This document shows, one piece after another, positions 6,952 through 24,000 of a stretch of DNA of 24,000 nucleotides. The notes beneath the pieces are model-generated. The model saw nothing but the letters and a program-made list of their open reading frames with translations, was not told the origin of the DNA and did not search any database. The translations under genes were made by a program, and so were the position numbers. This DNA comes from Salmonella enterica subsp. houtenae serovar Houten. Its GTDB lineage: Bacteria > Pseudomonadota > Gammaproteobacteria > Enterobacterales > Enterobacteriaceae. Numbering within the stretch: the first letter of the stretch is position 1; each line of letters opens with the position of its first letter. The stretch is from assembly GCA_900478215.1 (NCBI GenBank), contig LS483478.1:1353831-1377830 (forward strand). The letters run 5' to 3'.

Positions 6952-8199
6952 ATGGCCATTAAAAAACGCAGTGCGACTGTTGTGCCCGGCGCATCCGGCG
7001 CGGCAGCGACCATTAAAAAAACCGAGGCCTCCCGCAACAGTTTCTGGGGCGAGCTACCGCAGCACGTCATGTCCGGTATTTCGCGCATGGTGCCAACGTT
7101 AATCATGGGCGGGGTGATCCTCGCTTTCTCGCAGTTGATTGCCTATAGCTGGCTGGACATTCCCGCCGATACCAGCATCATGGACGCGTTGAACAGCGGA
7201 AAATTCGCTGGTTTTAACCTCTCCTTGTTGAAGTTCGCCTGGCTATCGCAATCTTTCGGCGGCGTGTTGTTTGGTTTCGCCATCCCGATGTTCGCTGCCT
7301 TTGTGGCGAACTCTATCGGCGGCAAACTGGCGTTTCCGGCTGGTTTTATCGGCGGTTTGATGTCCACTCAGCCAACGCAGGTGCTGAATTTTGATCCGGC
7401 CAGCCTGCATTGGGTGACCGCCGCGCCAGTCCCGTCAACCTTTATCGGCGCGTTGATTATTTCTATCGTCGCGGGATATCTGGTGAAGTGGATGAACCAA
7501 AAAATCCAGTTGCCTGACTTTCTGTTGGCCTTTAAGACCACCTTTTTACTGCCGATTCTCTCCGCCATTGTTGTGATGCTGGCGATGTACTACGTGATTA
7601 CGCCCTTTGGCGGCTGGATCAATGGCGGAATTCGCACGTTGCTCACCGCGGCGGGTGAAAAGGGGGCATTAATGTACGCGATGGGAATCGCCGCCGCGAC
7701 TGCCATCGACCTCGGCGGCCCCATTAACAAAGCCGCAGGATTTGTTGCCTTCAGTTTTACCACAGACCATGTGTTGCCGGTGACGGCGCGTTCCATCGCG
7801 ATTGTCATCCCGCCGATTGGTCTGGGGCTGGCGACGCTGCTCGACCGTCGTCTGACCGGTAAACGTCTGTTCAGCGCGCAGCTTTATCCGCAGGGCAAGA
7901 CGGCGATGTTCCTGGCATTTATGGGGATCAGCGAAGGGGCGATTCCATTTGCGCTGGAAAGCCCGATCACCGCTATCCCGTCTTACATGGTCGGCGCCAT
8001 CGTGGGTTCGACGTTCTCCGTCTGGCTGGGCGCGGTGCAATGGTTCCCTGAGTCGGCAATCTGGGCGTGGCCGCTGGTAAGCCATCTCGGCGTCTATATC
8101 GCGGGCATTTTACTGGGCGCGGTCATTACGGCGCTGATGGTGGTCTTCTTGCGCCATATGATGTACCGGCGGGGTAAATTGCTGATTGAAAGTCTGTGA
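6952..8199 (+). CDS. fryC: PTS fructose-like enzyme IIC permease
   Basis: 415 aa, colinear with recalled E. coli FryC ([19 protein letters not shown]...), polytopic membrane protein. Confidence 0.92.
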
Positions 8200-8215
8200 A
8201 ATAAGGACCGATAAC

Positions 8216-9298
8216 ATGACGCGACTGACATTGCTTCGCCAATGGCTCACCGAGCGCCAATTAGATGCGGTACTGATCTCCTCGCGCCCGAACAAGCAGC
8301 CGCATCTGGGCATTTCCAGCAGCTCAGGATTTGTCCTGATCAGCCGTCAACATGCGCATATTTTGGTTGATGCCCGTTATTACGCCGATGTGAAAGCGCG
8401 CGCGAACGGATATTGCATACATCTGCTCGGCGGGCAGCAGACGCTGGCGTCGCTGGTGAATCAGATTATCGCTGCGGAAAATCTGCAAACGGTCGGCTTT
8501 GAAGGCGCGCAGGTCAGTTGGGAGACGGCGCGTCGCTGGCAGACGGAACTGCGGGCCACCATGATCAGCGTCTCCATTGACGCGCTGCGGCGTATTAAAA
8601 CGGCGATGGAAATTGATCGTATTCGTGAAGCGTGTCGCATTGCTGATGCGGGTGCGGAACACATTCGCCGCTTTATCGCGCCAGGCCAGAGCGAGCGAGA
8701 AATCGCCGCTGAACTGGAGTGGTTTATGCGCCAGCGCGGCGCGGAGAAAGCCTCTTTCGATACGATTGTCGCCAGCGGCTGGCGCGGCGCGCTGCCGCAC
8801 GGTAAAGCCAGCGATAAAATCGTGGCGGCGGGGGAATGGATAACGCTCGATTTCGGCGCGTTGTATCAGGGATATTGTTCCGATATGACCCGAACTTTTC
8901 TGGTGCCCGGCGCGGGCGCGCCGCAGGAGCATCCGCTGTTTCCCGTCTATCATATTGTCCTTGAGGCGCAGCTTGCCGCCATTGCAGCTATCCGTCCGGG
9001 CGCGCGCTGTCTGACGGTGGATGCCGCCGCGCGCGACGTTATCGACCGGGCGGGGTACGGCGAGTTTTTCGCCCATAACACCGGCCATTCTATCGGCATT
9101 GAAGTACATGAAGATCCATGCTTTTCGCCTGATGACCACACCGTACTCGCACCGGGAATGCTACTGACCGTGGAGCCGGGCATTTATCTGCCGGAGCAGG
9201 GCGGGGTACGCATCGAAGATGTTGTACTGGTCACGCTGGAAGGCGTGGAAGTGCTCTATTCCCTGCCGAAAACCGTATTACTGACAGGAGCCGCATGA
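8216..9298 (+). CDS. ypdF: Xaa-Pro aminopeptidase (M24 family) YpdF
   Basis: 360 aa from ATG 8216 ([20 protein letters not shown]...), with AAGGA upstream. The M24 motifs [13 protein letters not shown] and VRIEDVV are present. The track start at 8186 is a TTG inside the fryC stop region. Confidence 0.9.
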
Positions 9299-10338
9299 TG
9301 GATTTATCGCTACTGAAAGCGCTGTGCGAGGCGGATGCGATCGCCGCGTCAGAACAGGAGGTTCGCCAGATCTTACTCGACGAAGCGGATCGCCTGCATA
9401 AAGAGGCGCGCTTCGATGGCTTAGGATCGGTATTGATCCGACTTAATGCCTCGGATGGCCCGAAAGTCATGATCTGCGCGCACATGGATGAAGTGGGATT
9501 TATGGTGCGCAGTATCTCCGGCGAGGGGGCGATTGATGTGCTGCCGGTGGGCAATGTGCGGATGGCGGCGCGTCAGCTCCAGCCGGTCCGTATCACCACG
9601 CGGGAGGAGTGCAAAATTCCCGGCCTGCTTGATGGCGAGCGCAGCGGCAACGAGGTGAGCGGACTGCGGGTCGATATTGGCGCGCGTTCTTATGACGAGG
9701 TAATACAGGCGGGGATTTGTCCCGGCGATCGTGTGACCTTTGATAGCGCGTTTCAGGTGTTGCCGCATCAGCGGGTGATGGGTAAAGCCTTTGATGACAG
9801 GCTTGGTTGCTATCTGCTGATAGCGTTGCTGCGTGAATGGCACGATGCGGAATTACCGGCGGAAATCTGGCTGGCGGCCAGTTCCAGCGAAGAGGTGGGA
9901 TTACGCGGCGGTCAAACAGCGGCCAGCGCCGTTGCGCCGGATTTAGCCATCGTACTGGATACCGCCTGTTGGGCGAAAAACTTTGATTATGGCGCGGCGA
10001 ACCATCGGCAAATTGGCCAGGGACCGATGCTGGTGTTGAGTGATAAGTCGCTGATTGCGCCGCCAAAATTAACCGCCTGGATTGAGTGCATCGCAGCGCA
10101 GGCGGGGATACCGCTACAGTTGGATATGTTCAGCAACGGCGGAACGGATGGCGGGGCGGTACATCTGAGCGGAACGGGCATCCCGACGGTGGTGCTTGGT
10201 CCGGCAACCCGCCATGGACATTGTGCCGCCTCGATTGCCGACTGTCGCGACATTCTGCAGACACAGCAGTTGCTGTCGGCGCTGATTACCGGTTTTACGC
10301 GCGATACTGTGGCTCGCCTGACGGATTTCAGGTGCTGA
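9298..10338 (+). CDS. ypdE: M42-family aminopeptidase YpdE
   Basis: [27 protein letters not shown]... is colinear with recalled E. coli YpdE. The ATGATG at 9295-9300 overlaps the ypdF TGA. AGGAG spacing favours 9298, but 9295 is possible. Confidence 0.9.
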
Positions 10339-10359: not shown

Positions 10360-12855
10360 ATGTTAACGATTGAATTTCTCTGCCCGCTACCTAACGGTAT
10401 TCATGCGCGTCCCGCGTGGGAGCTGAAGGAACAGTGCAGCCAGTGGCAAAGTGACATCACTTTTATTAATCATCGCCAGAATACGCGGGCGGATGCGAAA
10501 AGTTCGCTGGCGCTTATCGGCACCAGTACGCTGTTCAATGATAGCTGCGTTCTGAATATTAGCGGGCGTGATGAAGAACAGGCTAAGCGATCGCTGGAGG
10601 CCTGGCTTGTGCGCCATTTTATCGACAGCGATAGCGTTCAGCCAGGGCCAGCCGAACTGGCGGCGCATCCGCTGCCGCGATCGCTGCTTCGCCTGAATCC
10701 GGATTTGCTGTACGGCGAGGTGCTGGCAAGCGGCGTGGGCGAGGGGATTCTGACGCTGTGGCAGAGCGATAATCTGGAAGGCTACCGTACCATTCCTGCG
10801 AACGCTGAAGATCTTACCCGCCTTGAAAATAGCCTGGCGACGCTGGCGGAGCAGCTTAATCAACAGCTTCGCGAGCGTGACGGCGAGAGTAAAACCATTT
10901 TAAGCGCTCATCTATCGCTGATTCAGGATGATGAGTTTGTGGGGAACATTCGTCGCTTAATGGTGGAACGCCATCTGGCGCTGGGAGCGGCGATTATTGC
11001 CAATATGGAGCAGGTTTGTAGCCAGCTTTCGGCCTCGGCAAGCGATTACCTGCGCGAGCGGGTAAGCGATATTCGTGATATTACCGAGCAGTTGTTGCGC
11101 ATTACCTGGCCTGAAAAACAGCCGCGTAATGCGCTGGTGCTAATGCATCCTACTATTCTGGTGGCGGAAGACTTAACGCCCAGCCAGTTTTTAAGCCTCG
11201 ATTTACAGTATCTGTCCGGCATGATCCTGGAAAAGACCGGCCGGACGTCACATACTTTGATTCTGGCGCGCGCCTCCGCGATCCCGGTGCTTAGCGGGCT
11301 CTCTGCCGAAGCCATTGGCCGTTATGCGACCCGGTCTGCGGTGTTGGACGCGCAGACCGGCGTACTGGCGGTTAGTCCGGATACCTCGGTGCGCGGCTAT
11401 TACGCCGTGGCGCAGAAGCTGGCGGATAAACGGCAACAGCGGCAGGCGTGCGATGCGGCGCTGTTAGCCTGTACGCAGGACAACCAGCGTATCGATATTG
11501 CGGCGAATATTGGCACCGCGCTGGAGGCGCCTGGCGCGTTTTCCAACGGCGCGGAAGGCATTGGCCTGTTTCGTACCGAAATGCTATTTATGGATCGCGA
11601 CAGCGCGCCGGATGAGCAAGAGCAGTTTGAAGCCTACCAACAGGTTTTGCTGGCGGCGGGCGAAAAGCCTGTGATTTTCCGCACCATGGATATTGGCGGC
11701 GATAAAAATATCTGCTATCTCAATATTCCGCAGGAAGAGAACCCTTTTCTTGGCTACCGTGCGGTGCGCATCTATCCTGAGTTTGCCGGACTTTTTCGCA
11801 CCCAGCTTCGCGCAATTTTGCGGGCCGCTGTTTTCGGTCATGCGTAGTTGATGATTCCGATGGTGCATAGTCTTGACCAGATTTTATGGGTAAAAAGCGA
11901 GCTGAAAAAGGCGATTGCGGAGCTGAAAGTAGAAAGGCTGCGTCACGCGCAGGATATCCCGTTGGGGATTATGGTTGAGGTGCCGTCGGTCTGTTACATC
12001 ATTGATCATTTCTGCGATGAGGTGGATTTCTTTAGCATCGGTTCGAACGATATGACGCAATATCTGTACGCCGTCGATCGTAATAATCCGCGTGTCTCGC
12101 CGCTGTATAATCCGATTACGCCATCGTTTTTACGCATGTTGCGGCAGATTATCCATGTTGCCCATGAGCGAGGAAAATGGGTTGGTATTTGCGGCGAACT
12201 GGGCGGAGAAAGCCGCTATTTACCGCTACTTTTGGGACTGGGGCTGGATGAGCTAAGTATGAGCAGCCCACGTATTCCGGCGGTGAAAAGTCAGCTACGT
12301 CATCTGGATAGCCAGGCGTGTCGGGCGCTGGCAAGTCAGGCTTGCGAGTGCCGCAGCGCCCAGGAGATAGAAGCGTTGCTGAATCAGTTCGCGCCAGAAA
12401 AAGAGGTGCGTCCGCTGTTGGCGCTGGAAAATATCTTTGTCGGCGAGCCGCTCAGTAATAAGGAGCAGGTTATCCAGTTTCTGTGCGGTAATCTTGGCGT
12501 TAACGGGCGTACCGAACATCCGTTTGAACTGGAAGAGGATGTCTGGCAGCGGGAAGAGATTGTGACCACCGCCGTCGGTTTCGGTGTGGCGATCCCCCAT
12601 ACCAAATCGCAATGGATTCGCCACTCGTCGATCAGTATTGCGCGTCTCGCACAGCCCGTAAACTGGCAGTCGGAGATGGGTGACGTAGAGTTGGTGATTA
12701 TGCTGACGCTTGGGGCGGATGAAGGGATAAATCATGTGAAGGTTTTTTCACAGCTCGCCCGTAAGCTGGTGAATAAAAACTTCCGTCAGTCGCTGTTTGC
12801 CGCCAATGATGCTGACAGTATTCTGGCGTTGCTGGAGACGGAGTTAACGTTTTAG
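10360..12855 (+). pseudogene. fryA: Multiphosphoryl transfer protein FryA (HPr-like + enzyme I + IIA-Fru), interrupted by one in-frame TAG at 11845-11847
   Basis: ORFs 10360-11847 and 11848-12855 share a reading frame and together are colinear with recalled 831-aa E. coli FryA. The junction reads ...AAVFGHA-TAG-LMIPMVHSLDQ where E. coli has ...FGNAQLMIPMVHSLDQ, consistent with CAG to TAG. Confidence 0.85.
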
Positions 12856-13796: not shown

Positions 13797-14382
13797 TGCC
13801 GTTCCTGTGCATGAATACTTCAACTGTCTGAATTATTTCACTTTACTCTTGCTGAGCGAAAGGTCAAACACTGGCGTGTTGAGTCATAACGTCATGGCGG
13901 TGACCAAGGCGAAAACAGGGATTTATTTTACTATACGTATCCGGTTCGCTGCCTTATTTACGGCTTCATCGCGACAGATTGCCGGAAATGATCCTTATTT
14001 TCGGGGAAAGGTCTCTGAAAAACACCGCAATACGGCATGATTGAATACGATTAGCGTTAGTAAGAGATTTGATTAAAGAGGAAAAACCACAAAATCAAAA
14101 GGGGATTATTTAAGATAAAGTTTATTGACAGGAAATTATCGTCGGCTGCACCACATTAGGTAACTTCAATGGTATCAATTTGTTAATAATATGGTTTGTT
14201 TAATGCTATAAGTGACAAGCTTAAAAAGTGAATTTTTACTGTTGTTCCTCTTTTTTGTCGCTAAAAAATATTTTCATTCCCCTCTCGACAGGAAGAAAAT
14301 GTTCAGGCTATTTTCTAAAGGAGCCACCATCGTGGCAGCGTCGCTCGGACGGTCCGGGCGCTAACGTTAATCTGAGGATATT

Positions 14383-15621
14383 ATGGCTGACTTCCGCCCT
14401 GAGCGTCGCTTTACGCGTATCGATCGCCTTCCGCCCTATGTTTTTAACATCACCGCTGAACTCAAAATGGCTGCGCGTCGGCGCGGCGAAGATATTATTG
14501 ATTTCAGTATGGGTAATCCTGATGGCGCAACCCCTCCCCACATTGTCGAAAAACTTTGCACCGTCGCGCAGCGTCCGGATACGCACGGTTATTCAACGTC
14601 TCGCGGCATACCGCGTTTACGCCGCGCGATTTCTCACTGGTATCAGGAACGTTATGATGTCGATATCGATCCGGAAACCGAAGCGATTGTGACCATCGGT
14701 TCCAAAGAGGGACTGGCACATTTAATGCTGGCGACGCTGGATCATGGCGATACGGTACTGGTGCCGAACCCCAGTTATCCGATTCATATCTATGGTGCCG
14801 TTATCGCCGGGGCGCAGGTGCGTTCGGTTCCGTTGGTCGAGGGGGTTGATTTTTTCAACGAGCTGGAGCGCGCTATTCGCGAAAGTTATCCAAAACCGAA
14901 AATGATGATTTTGGGTTTTCCGTCTAACCCTACGGCTCAGTGTGTCGAACTGGAGTTTTTTGAAAAAGTGGTCGCTCTGGCCAAACGTTATGATGTGCTG
15001 GTAGTGCACGATCTGGCGTATGCCGATATCGTGTACGACGGCTGGAAAGCGCCATCCATTATGCAGGTGCCCGGCGCGCGCGACGTGGCGGTCGAATTTT
15101 TCACTCTGTCGAAAAGCTACAATATGGCGGGCTGGCGTATTGGATTTATGGTGGGCAATAAAACCCTGGTCAGCGCGCTGGCGCGCATTAAAAGTTATCA
15201 CGATTATGGTACCTTTACCCCACTTCAGGTAGCGGCTATCGCCGCTCTGGAAGGCGATCAGCAGTGCGTGCGCGATATCGCCGAGCAGTATAAACGTCGT
15301 CGCGATGTGCTGGTGAAGGGGCTGCATGAAGCGGGCTGGATGGTTGAAACGCCGAAAGCCTCAATGTATGTCTGGGCGAAAATCCCGGAGCAATATGCGG
15401 CGATGGGGTCGCTTGAGTTTGCCAAGAAGCTGCTGAATGAGGCGAAGGTTTGCGTTTCTCCAGGGATAGGCTTTGGTGATTATGGCGACACCCATGTACG
15501 CTTTGCATTAATAGAGAATCGCGATCGTATTCGCCAGGCCGTCAGAGGGATTAAAGCGATGTTCCGCGCCGATGGCGTGCTGTCGGCACATCCGAAACCC
15601 GTTGAAGCGAGCACGAAGTAG
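14383..15621 (+). CDS. alaC: Glutamate-pyruvate aminotransferase AlaC (PLP-dependent, class I)
   Basis: 412 aa, [48 protein letters not shown]..., near-identical to recalled E. coli AlaC/YfdZ. The PLP lysine motif [10 protein letters not shown] is present, and GAGGA lies upstream. Confidence 0.95.
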
Positions 15622-15627
15622 AAAAAC

Positions 15628-15655
15628 AAACAGGAGCCTCATAGCTCCTGTTTTT
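15628..15655. terminator. Bidirectional rho-independent terminator shared by alaC (+) and ypdK (-)
   Basis: AAACAGGAGC (15628-15637) pairs with GCTCCTGTTT (15644-15653) around a 6-nt loop. A T5 run follows on the plus strand, and an A-run precedes it, giving a U-run on the minus strand. Confidence 0.85.
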
Positions 15656-15670
15656 CTCTGCATTGTACTT

Positions 15671-15742
15671 TTAAATCATCAGGGCGAAAGTACCGGCCCA
15701 AACGATGACCATAAATGAAATGCCCATAAAGAAATATTTCAC
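15671..15742 (-). CDS. ypdK: 23-aa small membrane protein YpdK
   Basis: The minus strand reads GTG AAA TAT TTC TTT ATG GGC ATT TCA TTT ATG GTC ATC GTT TGG GCC GGT ACT TTC GCC CTG ATG ATT TAA, giving (M)KYFFMGISFMVIVWAGTFALMI. This matches the E. coli YpdK sequence as I recall it, and it lies in the same alaC-lpxP gap. GGAGAG sits 7 nt upstream. The ORF is below the track's length cut-off. Confidence 0.6.
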   Translation of the reverse strand: MKYFFMGISFMVIVWAGTFALMI

Positions 15743-16033
15743 GTTTCATCTCTCCGCGTACCTGTCGTACGCCTAAATGAACTTACACTTACCTGATTAT
15801 AGAGAGTTGATGCCGGACAATACGAAATTGAGAATAATTCGTGTTTCGACTGCCTGCATCACCTCAGAATTCTGCGCGTCATCGCTCCAGACGGCGCTAA
15901 TGTACGCCTAAAAATGAGGTGAGACAAGAGGCATTTTCTTATTTACTTTTAGTAACTTACAGGTGTCGTGGATCGGCGACAGTTTAATTTCTGACAGTGA
16001 TAAATCGCTATTGAGCGAAGCCGCCGACACATT

Positions 16034-16057
16034 AAAAAACCTCCTGTAAACAGGAGG
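16034..16057 (-). terminator. Minus-strand rho-independent terminator with no obvious gene of its own (second terminator behind lpxP, or end of a short transcript)
   Basis: CCTCCTG (16040-16046) pairs with CAGGAGG (16051-16057) around a 4-nt loop. On the minus strand a U6 run follows (plus-strand A6 at 16034-16039). Confidence 0.55.
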
Positions 16058-16124
16058 CTTATCGCTAAAAGCAGGAATGAATAATTTATGGTATGAATAT
16101 TATGGCAATGCGAAATGACAAAAT

Positions 16125-16145
16125 AAAAGGCCTTGCGGCCTTTTT
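16125..16145. terminator. Bidirectional terminator hairpin at the lpxP 3' end
   Basis: AAAAGGCC-TTGC-GGCCTTTTT has A/T runs on both sides and overlaps the lpxP stop codon at 16144-16146. Confidence 0.75.
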
Positions 16146-17064
16146 AGATATAGAGTGACGCTTCTCCCAACGGGCGAGTCTTGAAACGGCGATGAATCCA
16201 GAGATACTGTTCCGGGGCGCGCATGATCTCTTTCTCAATAATTTTATTCATATAGGCAGCGGCTTGATTTTCATCTGTCGGGTAGCCTTCCATTTCAGGG
16301 GTAATATAGAGACGATAACCCGAGTTATCGGTTTTCCTTACCATTGTAACGGTCAACATGGCGGCGCCAGACAGCCTGGACAGTACATAGGTACCATTGG
16401 TGGTGGCGACGTTTTCAACTGCGAAAAATGGCGCAAAGGAGCTACCTTTAGGGCCGTAGTCCTGGTCGGGAGCAAACCAAACGGCTTCCCCTTTTTTTAG
16501 CGCGCCCACAATGCCGCGCAGATTATTTCTGCCGATCATCGCTTTATTTGAGCGCATACGACCGCGCGTCTGCACCCACTCCATGAGCGGATTGTTATGC
16601 GGACGGTAGGTGGCCATCATCGGCTGACAGAGACCCATCACCCGGCCTCCTAACTCCAGCGACATAAAATGTACGCCAACGACCATTACGCCGCGATTTT
16701 GCGCCTGCGCACGGGTAAGGTTGTCCAGTCCGTCCACATCAAACCATTTTCGAACCCGGCTGTCAGGCCAGAACCAGGCCATGCCCGTTTCAAGCAGCGC
16801 CATGCCAAGAGAGTGGAAATTCTCGGCGATCAGCTTTTCCCTCTCTTCCCGGGAGAGTGTCGGAAAACAGAGTTCAATATTTTTCTGGGCGATCGACTCA
16901 CGTCGCTTCAGGAAGGGGCGCGCCAGCTTACCGGTGCGGGTGCCCAGAAAACGCAAAACCGGGTAGGGAAGCTGCACCAGCAACCAGAGGACGCCAACAC
17001 CAAACCACGTCAGCCAGTAGCGCGGATGCAAAAACGCGCGTGAAAATTTGCTTTGAGGAAACAT
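16144..17064 (-). CDS. lpxP: Lipid A palmitoleoyl-ACP acyltransferase (cold-induced LpxL paralogue)
   Basis: 306 aa from ATG 17062-17064 (MFPQSKFSRAFLHPRYWLTWFG...) with GAAGG upstream, colinear with recalled E. coli LpxP. The 27 extra N-terminal codons in the ORF track run into an ERIC repeat. Confidence 0.93.
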   Translation of the reverse strand: MFPQSKFSRAFLHPRYWLTWFGVGVLWLLVQLPYPVLRFLGTRTGKLARPFLKRRESIAQKNIELCFPTLSREEREKLIAENFHSLGMALLETGMAWFWPDSRVRKWFDVDGLDNLTRAQAQNRGVMVVGVHFMSLELGGRVMGLCQPMMATYRPHNNPLMEWVQTRGRMRSNKAMIGRNNLRGIVGALKKGEAVWFAPDQDYGPKGSSFAPFFAVENVATTNGTYVLSRLSGAAMLTVTMVRKTDNSGYRLYITPEMEGYPTDENQAAAYMNKIIEKEIMRAPEQYLWIHRRFKTRPLGEASLYI

Positions 17065-17133
17065 AAAATACCTTCTGTAGATACGAAAATAATGTATCGC
17101 AGAAGAGTCATTATCCGCAGCGGTACACTCTGA

Positions 17134-17245
<112 letters not shown>

Positions 17246-17608
17246 GTTAGGCCATCATGTACGACAATGGTTCCCGTAAGGAGTGTAAAACTAAGTCAGT
17301 ACTAAACCACGAGGGCATGAACGCCAGGCAGGTTAATGTACCACCAGTTATTTACTCGCGCCCAGAAATTCTTTATCAAGAAGCGTAAATATTTCTTCCG
17401 TAGCAAAAATACGTTAATGATTATTTTTAATTCATTGTTTTTACAGTATTAATTTCATTTCAGCGAAGGTTATTGAAAAATGATTAGAAAAATAAAATGT
17501 GAGATAAATGTTATGGAATTGACTTACTGATAAGGTTTATCTTAAAGGAGGAATGATAGGGAACGTAAGGCTATATGGAAGCCTTGTTACAGACAGGAGG
17601 TATTATAG

Positions 17609-17851
17609 ATGATCTATTTATGGACATTTCTTACAATAAGTATACTTGCCGTGAGTTGTTATATCGGTCAGGTGATGGGGGTTTTTTCTGCGGTTTCTTC
17701 TTTTACTGGAATGGTTATCCTTGCCGCTCTGATTTATTTACTCAATATATGGCTGCAAGACGGCGATGAAATCGTTAGCGGATTATTGCTCTTTCTCGCA
17801 CCTGCATGTGGGTTAATCATTCGCTTTATGGTGGGATACGGCAAGCGTTAG
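17609..17851 (+). CDS. yfdY: 80-aa small inner-membrane protein, YfdY-like (DUF2545) by position and size
   Basis: Strong AGGAGG 8 nt before ATG 17609. There are three hydrophobic segments and its own terminator follows. It lies divergently upstream of lpxP, as 80-aa yfdY does in K-12. The symbol rests on synteny and length recalled from memory. Confidence 0.7.
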   Translation: MIYLWTFLTISILAVSCYIGQVMGVFSAVSSFTGMVILAALIYLLNIWLQDGDEIVSGLLLFLAPACGLIIRFMVGYGKR

Positions 17852-17862
17852 CATGAATAGAT

Positions 17863-17891
17863 AGCGCCGATAACATCGGCGCTTCTTTATT
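17863..17891 (+). terminator. Rho-independent terminator of the yfdY-like gene
   Basis: AGCGCCGAT (17863-17871) pairs with ATCGGCGCT (17875-17883) around a 3-nt loop and is followed by TCTTTATT. Confidence 0.8.
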
Positions 17892-18246
17892 CAGGAAAGG
17901 TTGAGTCATTATTGTGCATCCACAGTAAATTATTGTTATGTAACGTATTAATCCTCTGTTGTACCCGCTTTAGCGCACCAGGATGGGGGAGGTAACAGAA
18001 TAGAATACAGCACACGATGTCGCCCACCAGAAGATAAAATCCGTCATATCAGTCGTCTGGTCCACCATCACGCCAGACAGGCTGGTACTCAACGAGGCGC
18101 CGCTGACGGAACACCTGCGAATTCCCCGTAAAAACGTTATCTGCGCATGAAAAAAGGGCTTAAGTAAAAATTCTGCCATCCCAGTGACGTTCAACCCGGC
18201 TGGCAACATCGGCAGCGATGTTGTTAGCCAAATAACGCCCAATCAC
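17887..18246 (-). pseudogene. Possible decayed gene remnant (identity unknown)
   Basis: One minus-strand frame (GTG 18244-18246 to TAA 17887-17889) has enterobacterial-looking codons (VIGRYLANNIAADVASRVERHWDGRIFT...) and ends at the shared hairpin. It carries two internal stops (TAA 18160-18162, TGA 18049-18051). The uninterrupted 90-aa track ORF (17970-18242, TTG start) is in another frame and is S/T/L-rich, like an off-frame product. Local GC is higher than in the AT-rich flanks. Confidence 0.3.
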
Positions 18247-18442
18247 CGTACAGGCAAGTCATCGAATATTTATTATAGACTCCTTATTATTCACCAGAAC
18301 ATCGAATTCTGTTTCTCAACTTCAATATAAGGTAAAAATGAGTCAAGTTCCCTATCGGAAAAAATGTACTCTTGTCCGGTGATTTGACAATATGAAAACT
18401 CATCACCTCTCCAGATTACTTCTGAATATGAGGGCAAGAGAA

Positions 18443-19381
18443 ATGAAAAAACATGTTATTGCAATGATGATGATCGCCGTATTTTCTGAGTCGGCTTATG
18501 CGGAGTCTACTTCATTTATTCCAGACTTCTCTCCTGATAGTGTCACGACATCCCTTTCCGCCGGGGTATTAAATGGTAAATCCAGGGAGCTGGTTTATGA
18601 TACCGACACCGGGCGGAAGATTAGTCAACTGGACTGGAAAATAAAAAATGTCGCCATTTTACAGGGGGATTTATCGTGGGAACCCTATTCGTTTATGACG
18701 TTGAATGCCCGCGGCTGGACTTCTTTGGCGCCGGGGTCGGGTTATCTGGTTGACCGCGACTGGATGAACAGCGAGCAGTCAGGTTGGACCGATCGCTCAA
18801 TCCATCCTGACACCAGCGTCAATCATGCCAATGAATATGATTTGAACGTAAAAGGCTGGTTATTGCAGGGCGATAACTACAAGGCCGGCGTAACAGCGGG
18901 CTATCAGCAAACCCGTTTTAGCTGGACAGCAAGAGGCGGGTCTTATATTTATGATAATGGCCGGTATATTGGTAATTTTCCTCGTGGCGAGCGTGGCATA
19001 GGTTATAGCCAGCGTTTCGAAATGCCCTATATAGGGCTGGCAGGACATTATCGTATCAATGATTTTGAGTGTAATGTCCTGTTTAAATACAGCGATTGGG
19101 TACATGCGCATGATAATGACGAACACTATATGCGGAAACTTACTTTCCGTGAAAAAACGGAAAACTCACGATATTATGGCGCCTCTATTAACGCCGGATA
19201 TTATATTACCAGTAATGCAAAAATCTTTGCGGAATTTGCTTACAGTAAATATGAAGAAGGTAAGGGAGGTACGCAAATAATAGATAAAACCAGCGGTGAT
19301 ACGGCGTATTTTGGTGGCGATGCCGCAGGTATTGCTAATAATAACTATACAGTTACTGCGGGGCTTCAGTACCGCTTCTAG
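18443..19381 (+). CDS. pgtE: Omptin-family outer-membrane aspartyl protease PgtE
   Basis: 312 aa from ATG 18443 ([20 protein letters not shown] signal peptide) with GAGGG 8 nt upstream. Colinear with recalled Salmonella PgtE ([21 protein letters not shown] ... [15 protein letters not shown]-terminal beta-barrel signature). Confidence 0.93.
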
Positions 19382-19394
19382 ACCATATCGAGAT

Positions 19395-19420
19395 GTCATC
19401 GGTCAATACAGACCGATGAC
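19395..19420 (+). terminator. Perfect 10-bp hairpin after pgtE (terminator-like, weak U-tract)
   Basis: GTCATCGGTC (19395-19404) pairs with GACCGATGAC (19411-19420) around a 6-nt loop. The following AACTTCTT is only moderately T-rich. Confidence 0.55.
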
Positions 19421-19616
19421 AACTTCTTGCGAATCTGCAAATCAGGTAAAAGGAAACATTTTGTAACGTCTGCGGTATTGATATACGCGACAGGTTTTTT
19501 GTCCAACAATCCCTGTAATTGTCCCGCATTTTTGCAACTTCTTTCACCCAACCACGCTTACCCAAACGTCCCTTCAGTCCGTCATTAGTCAAACGTCTCG
19601 TCAGCCTGCTGGCTGG

Positions 19617-20306
19617 CTAGCCGTGTTTCCTGTAAGTCTGCGGCATGCTCCCAATCACCTTACCAAAGACAAAAACCTTGTTCATCTCATCTCTTTCAAT
19701 GGGGTCCCAGGCTGAATAACTCTTGTTATCAGATATGACAAGGAGCTTATCCTTCATCTTCTGCAGCCTCTTAACATGGGCGGTATCGTCATAGAGGAAG
19801 GCGTATATTCCATCCCCATCGAAGTTTTTGATGCTTATGTCTACAAACAGCAAATCTCCTGGCTCAATAGTCCCTGACATGCTATCCCCGCGTACATTTA
19901 TGATGCGGATATTTTCCGCTTTTCTACCATCAAACATGTGTCTGGCGTCGTCCTGTGAGTACTCAACCGAACGGAGTATTTCCACGAATTCTCGATTGAT
20001 AACGCCAGGGCCAGCGCTAACTTCAAAATCCAGGATAGCGATTTTAAATGTATTTGATGATGGAGATGTGGTGATCGGAGTCGTTCCATCTTTTTTCATG
20101 GGGCCAAATCCGGTAGATAGCCATTCCGAATTGACACCTAACGCGTTTGCTATTTCAACAATCTTTGTTGAGCCACGCGCATTTCCGCTTGTCAGGCGCC
20201 AGATCGTTGGCTGAGCAACGCCTGACGCTTTAGCAAGAGCGCCTTGAGATATACCAGCCAGTTCCATTGCCTTGTTGAGACGGTCAGCGAGAGTTTCTTT
20301 TTTCAT
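19617..20306 (-). CDS. Phage cI/LexA-like repressor: N-terminal XRE-type HTH plus C-terminal S24 autopeptidase
   Basis: 229 aa from ATG 20304-20306 (MKKETLADRLNKAMELAGISQGALAKASGVAQPTIWRL...) with GAAGG upstream. It has a candidate Ala-Gly cleavage site (EVSAGPG), the serine motif VRGDSMSGTIEPGD and the lysine motif HVKRL. The track start at 20342 is a TTG. Confidence 0.9.
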   Translation of the reverse strand: MKKETLADRLNKAMELAGISQGALAKASGVAQPTIWRLTSGNARGSTKIVEIANALGVNSEWLSTGFGPMKKDGTTPITTSPSSNTFKIAILDFEVSAGPGVINREFVEILRSVEYSQDDARHMFDGRKAENIRIINVRGDSMSGTIEPGDLLFVDISIKNFDGDGIYAFLYDDTAHVKRLQKMKDKLLVISDNKSYSAWDPIERDEMNKVFVFGKVIGSMPQTYRKHG

Positions 20307-20504
20307 AACCTTCAACTTATACGCTTGCGTATTGATAGTCAAAATACTTTTTACTATTGCATTTTTAATACTTATTGCTATTATTGATTGCGGTCTATAC
20401 GTAAGAGAATGAGTATGACTAAAAAATCAATATAAAAAGCTGTTGTCATTGCAGGGGTATATCCGGACGCAGTGCTTGAAACCATATAAATAACAGGAAA
20501 CACT
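20307..20504. promoter_or_regulatory. Divergent immunity/switch region with candidate operators and promoters
   Basis: There is an inverted repeat ATACGC-tt-GCGTAT (20319-20332), with the TATACG half-site repeated at 20396-20401. Tandem TACTATTGC / TACTTATTGC repeats lie at 20352-20378. A rightward TTGCAT-16 nt-TATTAT promoter lies at 20357-20384. A leftward TTGACT-15 nt-TATAAG promoter ends 9 nt before the repressor ATG. A 6-8 codon ORF (ATGAGTATGACTAAAAAATCAATATAA, 20409-20435) sits where a cro gene would be. Confidence 0.45.
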
Positions 20505-20579
20505 ATGATATTTAAATTAATTACACTGATATTGATCTGTCACTCTTTGGCTGCTTGTACAACTCTTTATTATCGGTAA
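20505..20579 (+). CDS. 24-aa mini-lipoprotein candidate (signal peptide plus lipobox, 7-residue mature part)
   Basis: The ORF ATG ATA TTT AAA TTA ATT ACA CTG ATA TTG ATC TGT CAC TCT TTG GCT GCT TGT ACA ACT CTT TAT TAT CGG TAA encodes MIFKLITLILICHSLAAC-TTLYYR. The lipobox is L-A-A-C and AGGAA lies 6 nt upstream. The stop overlaps the next ATG as TAATG. It is below the track cut-off and could be a truncated gene. Confidence 0.4.
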   Translation: MIFKLITLILICHSLAACTTLYYR

Positions 20580-21088
20580 TGACTATGCGCCGTATATTAG
20601 CCATTACTGCCGCGCTTTCTCTTGGCGGCTGCATTACTGTGTATGGTCCGGTTAAAACGGGAGGGCAGCAACAGCAGGACAGCCAGTCCGGGCAGCAGCC
20701 AGGGATGAGCGAACAGATATCAACCTCATTCATCGGTAACCGCAAACCGGATGAGTTGCTGAATGCCGTGGAGTTGTATTTCAGGGAGAAGGCCATCACA
20801 GCCAGTGTTAACGACCCTACCACAGGGATTATCGCCGGTATCGGAGAGGACCCGGAACTGAGCTCGTTGTATCTGGACTGCTCACTGTTACCACAGACAC
20901 AAAATATCCAGGAGCATTACCGTATCGTCGCGCAGGTCTGGAGTGCCGGTGAAGGTAGTAATGTTTCGATCATGGTGATGGGCACAGCAGGAGTGGATAC
21001 TGCCGACGGTAACGATAAGGTGAAGCCAGTGGAGTGTAAGAGCACCGGAATATTTGAGAAGGATTTGCTGGAAAGATTACGTAAGTAG
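20579..21088 (+). CDS. Lipoprotein of unknown function (Gln-rich linker, two further Cys)
   Basis: MTMRRILAITAALSLGGC-ITVYGPVKTGGQQQQDSQSGQQPG... has a basic n-region, a hydrophobic core and an LGGC lipobox. The start is ATG 20579 (TAATG-coupled) or ATG 20585; the track start at 20555 is a TTG. I recognise no family. Confidence 0.75.
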   Translation: MTMRRILAITAALSLGGCITVYGPVKTGGQQQQDSQSGQQPGMSEQISTSFIGNRKPDELLNAVELYFREKAITASVNDPTTGIIAGIGEDPELSSLYLDCSLLPQTQNIQEHYRIVAQVWSAGEGSNVSIMVMGTAGVDTADGNDKVKPVECKSTGIFEKDLLERLRK

Positions 21089-21112
21089 TCTGAGAAACCG
21101 CGTGAATAAAAA

Positions 21113-21149
21113 GCCCCCGCAAGATGGAATCGGAAGTATCTGCGGGGGG
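21113..21149 (+). terminator. Stem-loop after the lipoprotein gene
   Basis: GCCCCCGCA (21113-21121) pairs with TGCGGGGGG (21141-21149) at 8 of 9 positions around a 19-nt loop, followed by TGTTTAATAAA. The large loop and weak U-tract lower confidence. Confidence 0.4.
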
Positions 21150-21410
21150 TGTTTAATAAAGTCCAAAAGTGTCTTGCAAGGGATAGCACAGATACACATC
21201 CCGCTCATAGTACCTAAGACAAAGACTTCATGTATCAACGTTGCGTAACCAAACGCCAGAAAATTGTTAATGTCATATTAACCAGTTGAATTCACTTTCA
21301 GCCGTACCGGAACATAAAGATACAGACCATTATCGTCGAGAAGTTAATATGGTTTTTCTTTCGGTTTTGCTGCTTTAATCTGCTTAACGGTGAGTATAGG
21401 GAAAATTATT

Positions 21411-21430
21411 TTATCCACTTTTTATCCGCA
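21411..21430 (+). promoter_or_regulatory. Two direct DnaA-box-like 9-mers one helical turn apart, next to an AT-rich stretch
   Basis: TTATCCACT (21411-21419) and TTATCCGCA (21422-21430) each match TTATCCACA at 8 of 9 positions. They are preceded by GGGAAAATTATTT. The 10-mer GAACTGATAA is repeated at 21469-21478 and 21532-21541. Confidence 0.35.
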
Positions 21431-21646
21431 TGGCGTGTGGTTGGCAACGATCTGTCGCGCGCTATGACGAACTGATAATTTACAAAACATCTGATATCCA
21501 GGGAATTCTGCGAACGACTGCGGAGAAGTGTGAACTGATAAATGGTGTCCCCTGCAGGAATGATTAAGCAAGGTAACATCATGACTACTAATGATATTTA
21601 TGAGTTGTGTGTTTGAATGGGATACATAGAGGGATATTAAGCAGAA

Positions 21647-21678
21647 TGGCGGTAACGGAAGGAAGGTTATTACCGCCA
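21647..21678 (-). terminator. Terminator-like hairpin closing the helicase/DUF4160/DUF2442 operon
   Basis: TGGCGGTAA (21647-21655) pairs with TTACCGCCA (21670-21678) around a 14-nt loop, 8 nt after the DUF2442 stop. The minus-strand downstream sequence is TTCTGCTT. Confidence 0.55.
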
Positions 21679-21686
21679 GTGGAGTT

Positions 21687-21935
21687 TTATGCGGCGCTGT
21701 GCGGCCTGAATGTCACATCGCCACGCCCGGCCAGGAGTCCTTCAATAGAAACATCCTCATTGAGGCTATCCCAATGAATACCACGGCGGCTTAACTCAAA
21801 GTCGTTTCGCTCATCAGGGCTGGCGTGCATCAATTTGGGAAACCATGCCAACGGTACGCCCAGCGTGCGGGCATCGCTTAACTCTACCCACATATTGTAT
21901 TCGTCGAACTTTACGTTCTTAGGCGAAATAGTCAT
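21687..21935 (-). CDS. DUF2442-domain protein
   Basis: 82 aa starting at an ATG. The pattern ...WVELSDARTLGVPLAWFPKLMHASPDERNDFELSRRGIHWDSLNEDVSIEGLLAG fits the DUF2442 signature as I recall it (L.DGR...PL..FP.L..A....R..W......GI.W..LDEDIS.E.LL.G). It overlaps the upstream gene by 17 nt. Confidence 0.75.
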   Translation of the reverse strand: MTISPKNVKFDEYNMWVELSDARTLGVPLAWFPKLMHASPDERNDFELSRRGIHWDSLNEDVSIEGLLAGRGDVTFRPHSAA

Positions 21936-22161
21936 TCCACGCCTCCATTAGTAGTTTGCGATTTTCTTCCACCACGCCCACCAGTTCCTTCAGATCGCGA
22001 GCATTAAAACCATCATTACGCGCCAGCAGCACTTCTGGTGTTAGCCAAAATTTTGCCTCACCATCAGTGCCGCGAACGTGAATATGTGCCGGTTCACGGG
22101 GATCACCCTCATTCGAATAGAAAAAGAACCGATACCCCTTAAATCTTAGTATGACAGGCAT
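21919..22161 (-). CDS. DUF4160-domain protein
   Basis: 80 aa, MPVILRFKGYRFFFYSNEGDPREPAHIHVRGTDGEAKFWL...; the GYRFFFYSNE...P.H.HV....EAKFWL pattern is the DUF4160 hallmark as I recall it. Its usual genomic partner is DUF2442. Confidence 0.75.
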   Translation of the reverse strand: MPVILRFKGYRFFFYSNEGDPREPAHIHVRGTDGEAKFWLTPEVLLARNDGFNARDLKELVGVVEENRKLLMEAWNDYFA

Positions 22162-22182
22162 AAATAAGTTCTCAATATTTGG

Positions 22183-22815
22183 TTAATTGATTCGATTCAG
22201 GGGCTGCTTCGTATACAGCAGACCACCAGCCATAGACACAATGAAATCATCGACATAAGCATCAACCCCGTACCACAGGCTTTGCTGTGCTATCCCTTCA
22301 TGTAAAGGATAAATATCAAGGGTTTCAAGAGGCGAAGCATCTTCAGGTATCTCGCCATCAGGATAGGCTTCGGCGTAGTCGTCTGGGTCTGTAAACCGCC
22401 AGAATTCTTCGTGTGTTATACCAGAATTCGCAAAGGTCATCACATTGGTAGTGCAAGCGGCATCTATCAGCGCCGTCACTTCCTGAATGATAAGCCCGGC
22501 GATCATCCTTGGTAATCGTTCTGTATCTATACCGGTGATGACTGTCTGTGCGTATTCTCTGTAGCGTTCGTCAGTGCCACGGTATCTGTATTCTTCAATA
22601 AAGTCAGCAATCAGGCAAAGTGAGTCAGAAATCTCGCGCCTGTCCTTCTCTGCACTTCTCCTGAAGGGGATAGCCATCAGGTTGGTAAGGATATTCAAAA
22701 AGTAAGGCTTAAGCCCGCTAAATCGAGCTGGTAGCGTTTCTACGGCGTTTTTTATGTATGCCTCATATTTCTTTTTAGTCCCAAAGCTCGACAGCCGCAG
22801 CCATATCTCGCGCAT
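22183..22815 (-). CDS. Hypothetical 210-aa protein with no family recognised (helical N-half, strongly acidic C-half)
   Basis: Uninterrupted ORF with an ATG start at 22813-22815 and a weak SD. It overlaps the helicase 3' end by 41 nt. The alternative start at Met47 (22677) would remove the overlap. It is co-oriented in the operon. Confidence 0.6.
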   Translation of the reverse strand: MREIWLRLSSFGTKKKYEAYIKNAVETLPARFSGLKPYFLNILTNLMAIPFRRSAEKDRREISDSLCLIADFIEEYRYRGTDERYREYAQTVITGIDTERLPRMIAGLIIQEVTALIDAACTTNVMTFANSGITHEEFWRFTDPDDYAEAYPDGEIPEDASPLETLDIYPLHEGIAQQSLWYGVDAYVDDFIVSMAGGLLYTKQPLNRIN

Positions 22816-24000
22816 GGCCTACATCATTGCTTGCCATTTCTGCAATCATGTTTTCCTGTACAGCTTCAAAAATTTCAGTTTCGGTGTAACCGGTTATGCT
22901 TGCAGACATCATCCCGGCAGCATAAACAATGCCGTACAGCGCGTGCGCCCTGACTTTGTGTCCCTCACGTGCGTTCATTGCTTCGGAATACTGCTCGCGC
23001 ATCAAGTCTTCAAACTGCATTGAGTAGGTTTTTAAGTTAGCTTGAACTCCGCGCCATCCAAGCTTGCTCAAATGATTTAGCCATTCCACGCCCGCTACGC
23101 CGTTGCATGACAGCATTGCAGATGTCAGGGCACTGGCGAAACTTCTTATATCGTTGTAGCCCTTGAGGTCTTGCGGTTCGATGAAAGGCTGCTCAATCAA
23201 GCGTCCTTCCGCGCCAGCTTTAAAACGGTGCTTCTCTTTTTGCCAAAGTTCGTCGGCTATCGTTTTTTCCGCAGTCATCAGGCAAATAGTGCTAAACGAA
23301 GTTACGGGCAGGTTTTTACCGTCTTGACCGCTGCGGCCTTTGGCCTTGCCGTTCGCTATCGAGTAAACAAGGTTTTCAAAGTCAGCACCCCGAAGGTTGG
23401 GCATTGCTGACAGGTCATCGATACGCATTGCAGAACCGCTGGAACATACGGCGCTATTGATGATTGCTGTATAGGTGGCGTTCGCGCTTTCAGTGAGCTG
23501 GTCAGGATTGCCCCATAAGCTTGCGCCGAGCTTCATAGCCAGTGTTTTACCTTTGCCTGAGCGCCCATATACATTGACCGTGATACCTTCAGCTTTGATT
23601 GAGCCGTTACGGACAGGAAACAGAACGGATGCCAGCTCAAGCAGGATCTGAAACGTAAGGCTGTGGTTGCCTTTGGTTAGCTCAATGACGCTTGTCCGAT
23701 AATCCTCAACAGTACCAACCGCAGCCGATCTGTATTTGCTATCTACTGGACTATCGAACTCAAAAAGCACGCTGTCAGACAGATATGTTTTACCGGATTG
23801 GGATACATAGAATTTTATGGCGTTATGCTCATGCCAGCCCGGAGCCGAACCATATACAGCGGATGGCAAATCTTGCTCAACAAGATAAGCGTTGCGATAG
23901 AAATCAATGTACGCCCCATCTACAACGACTTCTGAGCCGAGCGACCTTAAAGCGGCGGCGAGGCGCTTAGCATCGCTTGACCATGGCAAAGAAACGCGGC
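22775..24000 (-). CDS. DUF927-type P-loop replicative helicase (Cch/SaPI-Rep-like), C-terminal ~408 codons; the N-terminus lies beyond the window
   Basis: The frame is open to the window edge, and the track start at 23989 is an internal TTG. Walker A is VYGRSGKGKTLA, and a Walker-B-like SAMRIDDLS lies downstream. Overall similarity to DUF927 proteins is judged from memory. Full-length relatives usually carry an N-terminal primase/Toprim region. Confidence 0.8.
   Translation of the reverse strand, partial: RVSLPWSSDAKRLAAALRSLGSEVVVDGAYIDFYRNAYLVEQDLPSAVYGSAPGWHEHNAIKFYVSQSGKTYLSDSVLFEFDSPVDSKYRSAAVGTVEDYRTSVIELTKGNHSLTFQILLELASVLFPVRNGSIKAEGITVNVYGRSGKGKTLAMKLGASLWGNPDQLTESANATYTAIINSAVCSSGSAMRIDDLSAMPNLRGADFENLVYSIANGKAKGRSGQDGKNLPVTSFSTICLMTAEKTIADELWQKEKHRFKAGAEGRLIEQPFIEPQDLKGYNDIRSFASALTSAMLSCNGVAGVEWLNHLSKLGWRGVQANLKTYSMQFEDLMREQYSEAMNAREGHKVRAHALYGIVYAAGMMSASITGYTETEIFEAVQENMIAEMASNDVGHARDMAAAVELWD

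Follow-up and report, generated by a model that had tools for sequence, protein, structure and literature searches.

The closest described relatives of the locus analyzed here are toxin-antitoxin (TA) modules that pair a DUF4160 protein with a DUF2442 protein. In Dickeya dadantii 3937 the two genes, dhiTA, are co-transcribed with the toxin gene first; DhiT arrests growth in both D. dadantii and Escherichia coli, co-expression of DhiA abolishes the arrest, and the DhiT/DhiA complex represses its own promoter, which makes the operon autorepressed (PMC8198452). On Thermus thermophilus plasmids, persistence is raised by a DUF4160/DUF2442 pair that immediately follows the rep gene, and a plasmid without the second open reading frame (ORF) yielded no transformants (PMC12724237). 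A comparative study further found a DUF2442 protein behind most DUF4160 proteins and identified DUF4160 as an effector domain of Menshen NsnC-like proteins (PMC12065111). We analyzed a 24,000-nucleotide stretch of Salmonella enterica subsp. houtenae serovar Houten DNA (contig LS483478.1, positions 1,353,831 to 1,377,830; hereafter the window) whose right end carries such a pair, and we consider it likely that the pair, a member of the DhiT/DhiA superfamily, represents the sole intact genes of a decayed satellite-type island that has undergone two deletions.

The DUF4160/DUF2442 pair

An earlier, sequence-only reading had grouped four ORFs at this end of the window into a tightly packed module and had nominated three small genes, co-transcribed with a satellite replication helicase, as an undescribed system. 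Its coordinates were all reproduced: the four ORFs lie on the minus strand with junctions of -41, +21 and -17 nt. A DUF927 ORF (22775-24000, continuing past the window end) overlaps a 210-amino-acid (aa) ORF (22183-22815) by 41 nt (22775-22815); a 21-nt gap separates the latter from the gene for an 80-aa DUF4160 protein, the putative toxin (21919-22161), which comes first and overlaps by 17 nt (21919-21935) the gene for an 82-aa DUF2442 protein, its putative cognate antitoxin (21687-21935). The domain assignments were borne out as well, with Pfam matches far over the gathering scores for DUF2442 (E = 2.4e-20), DUF4160 (E = 8.3e-23) and DUF927 (E = 2.8e-27); judged by these matches, the three ORFs are not chance reading frames. 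The 210-aa ORF had no match in Pfam, PADLOC or PHROG. Eight nucleotides past the DUF2442 stop, a stem-loop on the minus strand (21647-21678, inverted repeat I2) consists of a 10-bp stem, a 12-nt loop and the tail UUCUGCUU. It is real by its folding energy (-14.2 kcal/mol; z = -2.5 against shuffled sequences) and is a plausible intrinsic terminator, although a simple terminator scan did not call it because its loop is longer than 8 nt.

Residues 9-76 of the DUF4160 protein align to positions 1-65 of the 65-position profile PF13711, and residues 6-71 of the DUF2442 protein to positions 2-70 of the 72 in PF10387. The search for DUF4160 homologues returned 2143 matches, and an alignment of 42 sequences, including Enterobacterales, Pasteurellaceae and Marinobacter, contains 27 invariant columns, among them N17, E18, G19, E23, H26, H28, E35, K37 and D50. 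Both small ORFs of the window are full length and carry every family-invariant residue, and the GGAGG Shine-Dalgarno sequence of the antitoxin gene sits inside the 3' end of the toxin gene. The geometry of 243 + 249 nt with a 17-nt overlap is identical in Y. ruckeri pYR8, Erwinia pETR003-a and C. rodentium. Homologues occur on 61 plasmids and one phage-plasmid: on pYR8, a 6.9-kb Yersinia plasmid, the cassette lies directly behind the rep gene, and on the Erwinia tracheiphila phage-plasmid pETR003-a (L022 3405-4475) it separates the terminase gene from the portal gene and directly adjoins the gene for a serine recombinase. Judged by domain content and gene order, the pair is the intact cargo and the only intact part of the remnant, and belongs to the DhiT/DhiA type II TA superfamily. 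Among the functions that the sequence-only reading had offered, toxin-antitoxin is therefore the right one for these two genes. Its idea of an undescribed system does not survive, since DUF4160/DUF2442 is the DhiT/DhiA superfamily (PMC8198452, PMC12724237, PMC12065111) and an NCBIfam toxin_DhiT model exists. PADLOC-DB v2 matched neither the three small proteins nor the full-length relative of the 210-aa protein (P0002, see below).

The ratio of nonsynonymous to synonymous substitution rates (dN/dS) in comparison with C. rodentium is 0.09 for the toxin and 0.035 for the antitoxin, and that of the antitoxin in comparison with Hafnia is 0.088; the pair is under purifying selection. These values bear on the possibility that the whole locus is inert debris in which the TA genes are merely unmutated so far and unexpressed, as might be expected of an island whose integrase, AlpA, origin and invertase are gone and for which no convincing promoter was found. 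Such a state would leave unaccounted for the full length of both ORFs with all family-invariant residues, the dN/dS range of 0.035-0.09, the intactness of the pair in C. rodentium, where neighboring genes have stops and deletions, and the retention of the Hafnia antitoxin at 97.6% identity after loss of its toxin. We therefore regard inert debris as improbable.

By analogy with the characterized homologues, the 80-aa DUF4160 protein would inhibit growth, and its conserved Glu, His and Asp residues would fit a small enzyme. The 82-aa DUF2442 protein would bind it directly and neutralize it. Loss of the locus would then free the toxin, so that the pair would stabilize the replicon or island that carries it, and we propose that the pair outlives the rest of the island for this reason. 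A role of the pair in phage defence, by abortive infection, is also possible. As for expression, homology among the cassette contexts begins at the toxin ATG and includes no common upstream promoter or operator; the cassette probably rides on upstream transcription.

Several observations weigh against assigning the pair to this superfamily and this function. The NCBIfam model toxin_DhiT (NF048015), which served as a proxy for the Dickeya DhiT/DhiA sequences, aligns end to end with the window DUF4160 protein but with a score of 23 bits (E = 8.9e-5) against an equivalog cut-off of 100 bits, and the DUF2442 protein matched no NCBIfam model; by this measure the window toxin is a superfamily member of a distant subfamily and not a DhiT orthologue. 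The dN/dS values come from few substitutions (9 synonymous against 3 nonsynonymous, and 7 against 1). Nothing is conserved upstream of the toxin start that could serve as a TA promoter or operator, and matches to the consensus promoter are at chance level. The fold of the DUF4160 toxin found no match in the PDB; the DUF2442 protein gave only weak sequence matches there, to 2x8n (E = 0.0075) and 3k8r. Finally, the Thermus ORFs had no visible effect in E. coli (PMC12724237), and in the Dickeya study plasmid stability was improved only by ccdAB2, an effect not reported for dhiTA (PMC8198452).

Island boundary, deletion junctions and the 210-aa ORF

The window is 99.7% identical to contig L007, in which the locus is flanked by yfdC, mlaA, fadL and fadIJ on one side and by an omptin gene on the other. 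There, tRNA-Arg(CCU) lies 133 bp ahead of the DUF927 ORF with no int between them, a position about 1.2 kb outside the right end of the window; tRNA and Rfam scans of the window itself returned nothing, the tRNA-Arg gene being outside it. The last 17 nt of this tRNA (ATTCCTGCAGGGGACAC; L007 7598-7614) recur exactly at L007 11255-11271, which corresponds to window positions 21545-21561 on the minus strand. This is the sole match of the repeat in the window at up to 3 mismatches, with a chance expectation of 0.03. Both island boundaries thus carry a copy of the tRNA 3' end in direct orientation, 21545-21561 being attR. Because the element ends at this repeat, the remnant totals ~3.66 kb, of which only 21545-24000 (~2.46 kb) falls in the window; the 4.6 kb of visible element proposed earlier was too large, since its boundary is here and not near 19400. 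From this context, window 21545-24000 is identified as the attR-proximal part of a decayed satellite island, of the kind of phage-inducible chromosomal islands (PICIs) and P4, that used the 3' end of argW, the tRNA-Arg(CCU) gene, as its insertion site in a Salmonella-like chromosome.

The DUF927 ORF can be read to its end in the near-identical L007, where it has 764 aa, and aligns throughout to residues 157-919 of the 1039-1045-aa primase-helicases of intact islands, with 84% identity to that of Citrobacter (L009), 64% to that of Hafnia (L011) and 83% to that of Leclercia (L013). The N-terminal Zn_Ribbon_Prim domain and ~120 C-terminal residues are missing, which makes it an internal fragment of a Toprim_3/DUF927 primase-helicase gene. 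Its limits are also those of the segment unique to L007 (7748-10038), which coincides with the ORF (7747-10041): the ATG is formed at the left junction from one flank base and TG, and the stop codon (22775-22777) consists of the first 3 nt of sequence derived from the next gene. Iterons lie downstream of the primase in L009, L011 and L013 and are deleted in the window lineage; AlpA is present in these three and in the Scandinavium island (L018) and absent from L007, as is an integrase by the tRNA. As had been suggested, a satellite-type island that encodes a Toprim/DUF927 primase-helicase thus ends here, but the DUF927 gene is not the working replication gene it was taken for: it is a fragment that starts and stops at deletion junctions and lacks origin iterons, integrase and AlpA. 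On the same grounds (no int at the tRNA, primase truncated, iterons deleted, AlpA absent), the locus does not qualify as a functional PICI/P4-like satellite. PADLOC returned only a spurious Cmr5 match (E = 0.032) for the fragment.

The junction itself is revealed by other Salmonella strains. BLASTN of the window against L005 gives 99.5% identity over 14179-22777 only. Between L007 and L005 the breakpoints lie at L007 7747 and 10039, with flanks 99.5% identical, and L007 7748-10038 stands in place of L005 8237-10296; in window coordinates the homology ends at 22777, which places the deletion or recombination junction at 22777/22778 (no strand applies). At that place the sister strains carry an integrase fragment, a DNA invertase and a full 296-aa gene, whose family we call fam296. 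In this second Salmonella configuration (L003-L006), int codons 1-254 are joined to the invertase, and full-length fam296 and the TA pair are kept, without AlpA, primase or origin. By this comparison, the adjacency of DUF927 and the -41 nt overlap are products of lineage-specific deletion at 22777/22778, and the overlap is a deletion scar, reflecting neither operon packing nor translational coupling. We envisage that one deletion removed int through primase codon 156 and that another removed primase codon ~920 through fam296 codon 99, which would leave an internal primase fragment abutting a 5'-truncated fam296 fragment, with the overlap as their junction. The tight four-gene packing had been read as operon design, yet this juxtaposition exists in one Salmonella configuration only.

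The 210-aa ORF follows the same pattern. Only 22183-22777 is homologous to fam296; ahead of it, 13 codons that start with the ATG come from primase-derived sequence read in a different frame. The homologues are mostly ~290-300 aa long and cover just the last ~197 residues of the 210-aa query. The Salmonella protein P0002 (296 aa) is 99% identical across 94% of the query and has ~86 further N-terminal residues with the family-conserved R58, Y77, L78, G82, R85 and R92; by tblastn, the window-type copy corresponds to fam296 residues 100-296. On this evidence, the 210-aa ORF is what is left of the ~296-aa island gene after loss of its 5' part, and within the window it is probably irrelevant.

We can now weigh the proposal that the genes for the 210-aa, DUF4160 and DUF2442 proteins make up a single three-gene system for defence or interference, hitherto undescribed, that is co-transcribed with the satellite DUF927 helicase and functionally tied to it. 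Its appeal lies in the close spacing of four same-strand ORFs with a single stem-loop behind the last, in the lack of a meaningful PADLOC match for any member, and in a cassette that has no conserved upstream region of its own and so is probably transcribed from upstream. The comparative context largely refutes it. The 210-aa ORF lacks the conserved N-terminal ~99 residues and takes its ATG from foreign sequence, the DUF927 ORF is truncated at both ends, and the juxtaposition occurs in a single Salmonella configuration whose sisters have the invertase and full fam296. Moreover, L009, L013, L015, L017 and L018 have fam296 but no TA pair, and plasmids and a phage have the TA pair but no fam296. 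A three-gene system is accordingly very improbable.

Intact relatives, the cargo slot and the decay series

The intact relatives examined, from Citrobacter (L009), Hafnia (L011), Leclercia (L013) and Scandinavium (L018), share an order of tyrosine integrase (adjoining yfdC in the Citrobacter copy), Icd-like gene, AlpA, Zn-ribbon/Toprim/DUF927 primase-helicase (~1040 aa), iterons, head-morphogenesis-like fragment (seen in the Citrobacter copy), invertase, fam296, a variable slot and attR. This layout is, by gene content, that of a satellite of PICI/P4-like type, so the notion of an island was right in kind. Arrays of direct and inverted iterons lie just downstream of the primase-helicase at L009 7242-7530, L013 8213-8491 and L011 7962-8270, and their repeat units differ per island (TAATATGCATTTGGCTCCAAA / ATGGAGCCA in L009, TGCAGACA in L013 and GGTGTCAA in L011). 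The arrays are likely origins, matched to the C-terminal domain of each primase.

The invertase is a 190-aa serine recombinase of the DNA-invertase type (phrog_125, E = 1.9e-54), and in the intact relatives full-length fam296 is always found directly behind it, 32-36 nt past its stop. Homologues of the 210-aa ORF came from Enterobacterales alone (Enterobacteriaceae and Hafnia). A profile search with fam296 gave 23 matches among 1.84 billion representative proteins, the distant ones without informative Pfam domains, and a scan of genome contigs with the fam296 alignment gave only 4 loci. Neither the 210-aa nor the 296-aa protein matched PADLOC, PHROGs or NCBIfam, and fam296 had no Pfam match. 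An AlphaFold2 model built from an 18-sequence alignment was poor (pLDDT 60.8) and all-helical, and Foldseek of this model against the PDB returned nothing under E = 0.18. As far as its neighborhoods show, fam296 is a rare island gene paired with the invertase and not with the TA pair.

The slot behind fam296 holds DUF4160 and DUF2442 in Salmonella, DUF2442 with the last 17 codons of DUF4160 in Hafnia, retron Ec48 in Leclercia, a DUF2971 protein matching the PADLOC candidate PDC-S31 (E = 6.5e-48) in C. pasteurii, and a 72-aa ORF in Citrobacter sp. Since the contents of the slot vary behind fam296, fam296 goes with the invertase, the TA pair is exchangeable cargo, and the two do not make up a three-gene unit. 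The sequence-only reading had placed its small genes at the position of accessory cargo, which is what the retron and PDC-S31 in the sister islands indicate. Its trio dissolves, one of the three being the remnant of a gene tied to the upstream invertase and not to the TA pair.

Given this slot, the pair could be mainly anti-phage (abortive-infection) or helper-interference cargo, selected for defence and not for addiction. The presence of retron Ec48 and PDC-S31 in the same slot of sister islands agrees with this, as do the DUF4160 effector domain of Menshen systems (PMC12065111) and the occurrence of the pair inside the Erwinia phage-plasmid as a moron-like insert. No PADLOC model matched the pair, however, and the literature searched contains no phage phenotype for the DUF4160/DUF2442 family. 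Rousset et al. and Fillol-Salom et al. are said to have described in 2022 that satellites carry defence hotspots, which we count in favor of a defence role. The frequent position right behind plasmid rep genes, together with the measured effect on persistence, points instead to stabilization (PMC12724237), and persistence in dead islands is equally compatible with addiction. We therefore find defence as the main function unlikely, and prefer to see the pair as a TA module that stabilizes its carrier.

A broader reading is that invertase and fam296 mark a cargo-exchange hotspot in argW-integrating islands, in which fam296 would be an accessory factor of a new kind, acting with the invertase or in cargo turnover, and the DUF4160 toxin an abortive-infection effector for the satellite. 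The cargoes seen at this slot comprise retron Ec48, PDC-S31, the DUF4160/DUF2442 pair and a CxxC mini-ORF. Taken as a whole we think this reading doubtful, and it cannot operate in the window because the invertase and the 5' end of fam296 are deleted there. No convincing inverted repeats that could serve as invertase crossover sites were found around fam296 or the cargo. In the Citrobacter islands L009 and L010, a 77-nt direct repeat of the fam296 3' end (10753-10829 and 11237-11313, 94% identical) flanks a small insert that encodes the 72-aa ORF with its CxxC motif; cargo seems to have entered there with duplication of the fam296 end, in a manner reminiscent of site-specific insertion, and this is one hint towards the broader reading.

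Together, Citrobacter sp., Hafnia, the two Salmonella configurations and C. rodentium form a decay series at this locus. In Hafnia alvei (L011/L012 10897-11182) the toxin gene is reduced to its last 17 codons and DUF2442 is intact, with 97.6% aa identity to the Salmonella protein. C. rodentium ICC168 retains, at the same site, a 5' piece of int, 143 bp of primase and a fam296 pseudogene with stops and deletions, next to an intact TA pair whose DUF4160 protein is 96% identical in amino acids. Across this series, the TA pair is, by sequence comparison, the part of the island that persists, intact even in more decayed copies. The Hafnia alvei locus represents an orphan antitoxin, and its island carries a further TA pair, Fic/Phd, immediately ahead of the invertase.

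Other elements occupy or adjoin the argW site. Left of attR, the window contains a separate, older remnant (21296-21544 and on to about 18392). Here 21305-21561 is ~78% identical to the E. coli intS-argW region (CPS-53/KpLE1-type), and of an IntS-like integrase (82% identity) only codons 1-34 are left, at 21296-21397 (minus strand). Beyond these, leftward, come a 177-aa ORF without a family match, a putative lipoprotein by reading of its sequence, a cI-like helix-turn-helix (HTH)/S24 repressor and an omptin. A megablast of 21400-24000 against E. coli genomes matched only the att and intS-upstream stretch (21402-21567) and no part of the module. In some Salmonella strains (L003/L004 1-9100), P22/lambda-like early-left prophage genes (N-like, cIII, kil, Rad52/Erf or an alternative, and anti-RecBCD) adjoin the truncated island integrase, and the argW site therefore holds tandem mobile elements. 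E. coli PSJ-42 (L002 6600-12169) has a different satellite at the same site, which encodes an HTH regulator, a P2-family major capsid protein, an Icd-like protein and a DUF927 protein of ~895 aa, only about 25-32% identical to the DUF927 fragment of the window; by its gene content, this satellite looks capsid-forming.

Relation to described systems

The analysis removes a false lead, in that the packing and the overlapping orphan beside the helicase were produced by deletions and not by operon design. It also points to a very conserved 80-aa DUF4160 subfamily and to a cargo hotspot downstream of the invertase and fam296 in a little-studied island family.

The DUF927 domain is shared with the Cch / SaPI-Rep helicases of the staphylococcal cassette chromosome element SCCmec and of Staphylococcus aureus pathogenicity islands (SaPIs). 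The earlier use of DUF927 as a marker of this class is right as to the domain, but an intact relative matches the NCBIfam SCC Cch1 helicase model only weakly (47 bits against an equivalog cut-off of 700 bits), the protein of the relatives is fused to an N-terminal Zn-ribbon/Toprim primase, like P4 alpha-type proteins, and the window copy is a fragment.

With PICIs and P4-like satellites the intact relatives share a tyrosine integrase by a tRNA, AlpA, an Icd-like gene, a Toprim/DUF927 primase-helicase with iterons behind it, a head-morphogenesis-like fragment and a cargo slot of changing content that includes defence genes. Unlike such satellites, the window copy retains no integrase, AlpA, origin or invertase, and both ends of its primase are cut off. 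In the relatives, no P4 sid, psu or delta genes and no capsid or packaging genes were identified. To our knowledge, a conserved pair of DNA invertase and fam296 has not been described for PICIs or P4.

The parCBA/parDE locus of RK2 is a plasmid stability module that combines a resolvase with a TA system. Here the recombinase is invertase-like (phrog_125), fam296 separates it from the TA pair, no res site was identified and the gene is deleted in the window. In the undeleted configuration, nevertheless, a replicative element carries a serine recombinase shortly ahead of a TA pair, as in loci of this type, and in the Erwinia phage-plasmid the recombinase directly abuts DUF4160/DUF2442.

Compared with DhiT/DhiA, the genes of the putative TA pair in the window overlap by 17 nt and not by 3 nt, its toxin scores 23 bits against the 100-bit cut-off, and the pair resides in a dead island and not on a plasmid or in the core chromosome. 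With both DhiT/DhiA and the Thermus module it shares the combination of a DUF4160 toxin and a DUF2442 antitoxin of ~80-90 aa, encoded by overlapping genes with the toxin gene first, and a place on mobile DNA, typically with a gene for replication or recombination immediately ahead of it. To these systems the locus adds a clear natural example of a TA pair that has outlived its mobile element.

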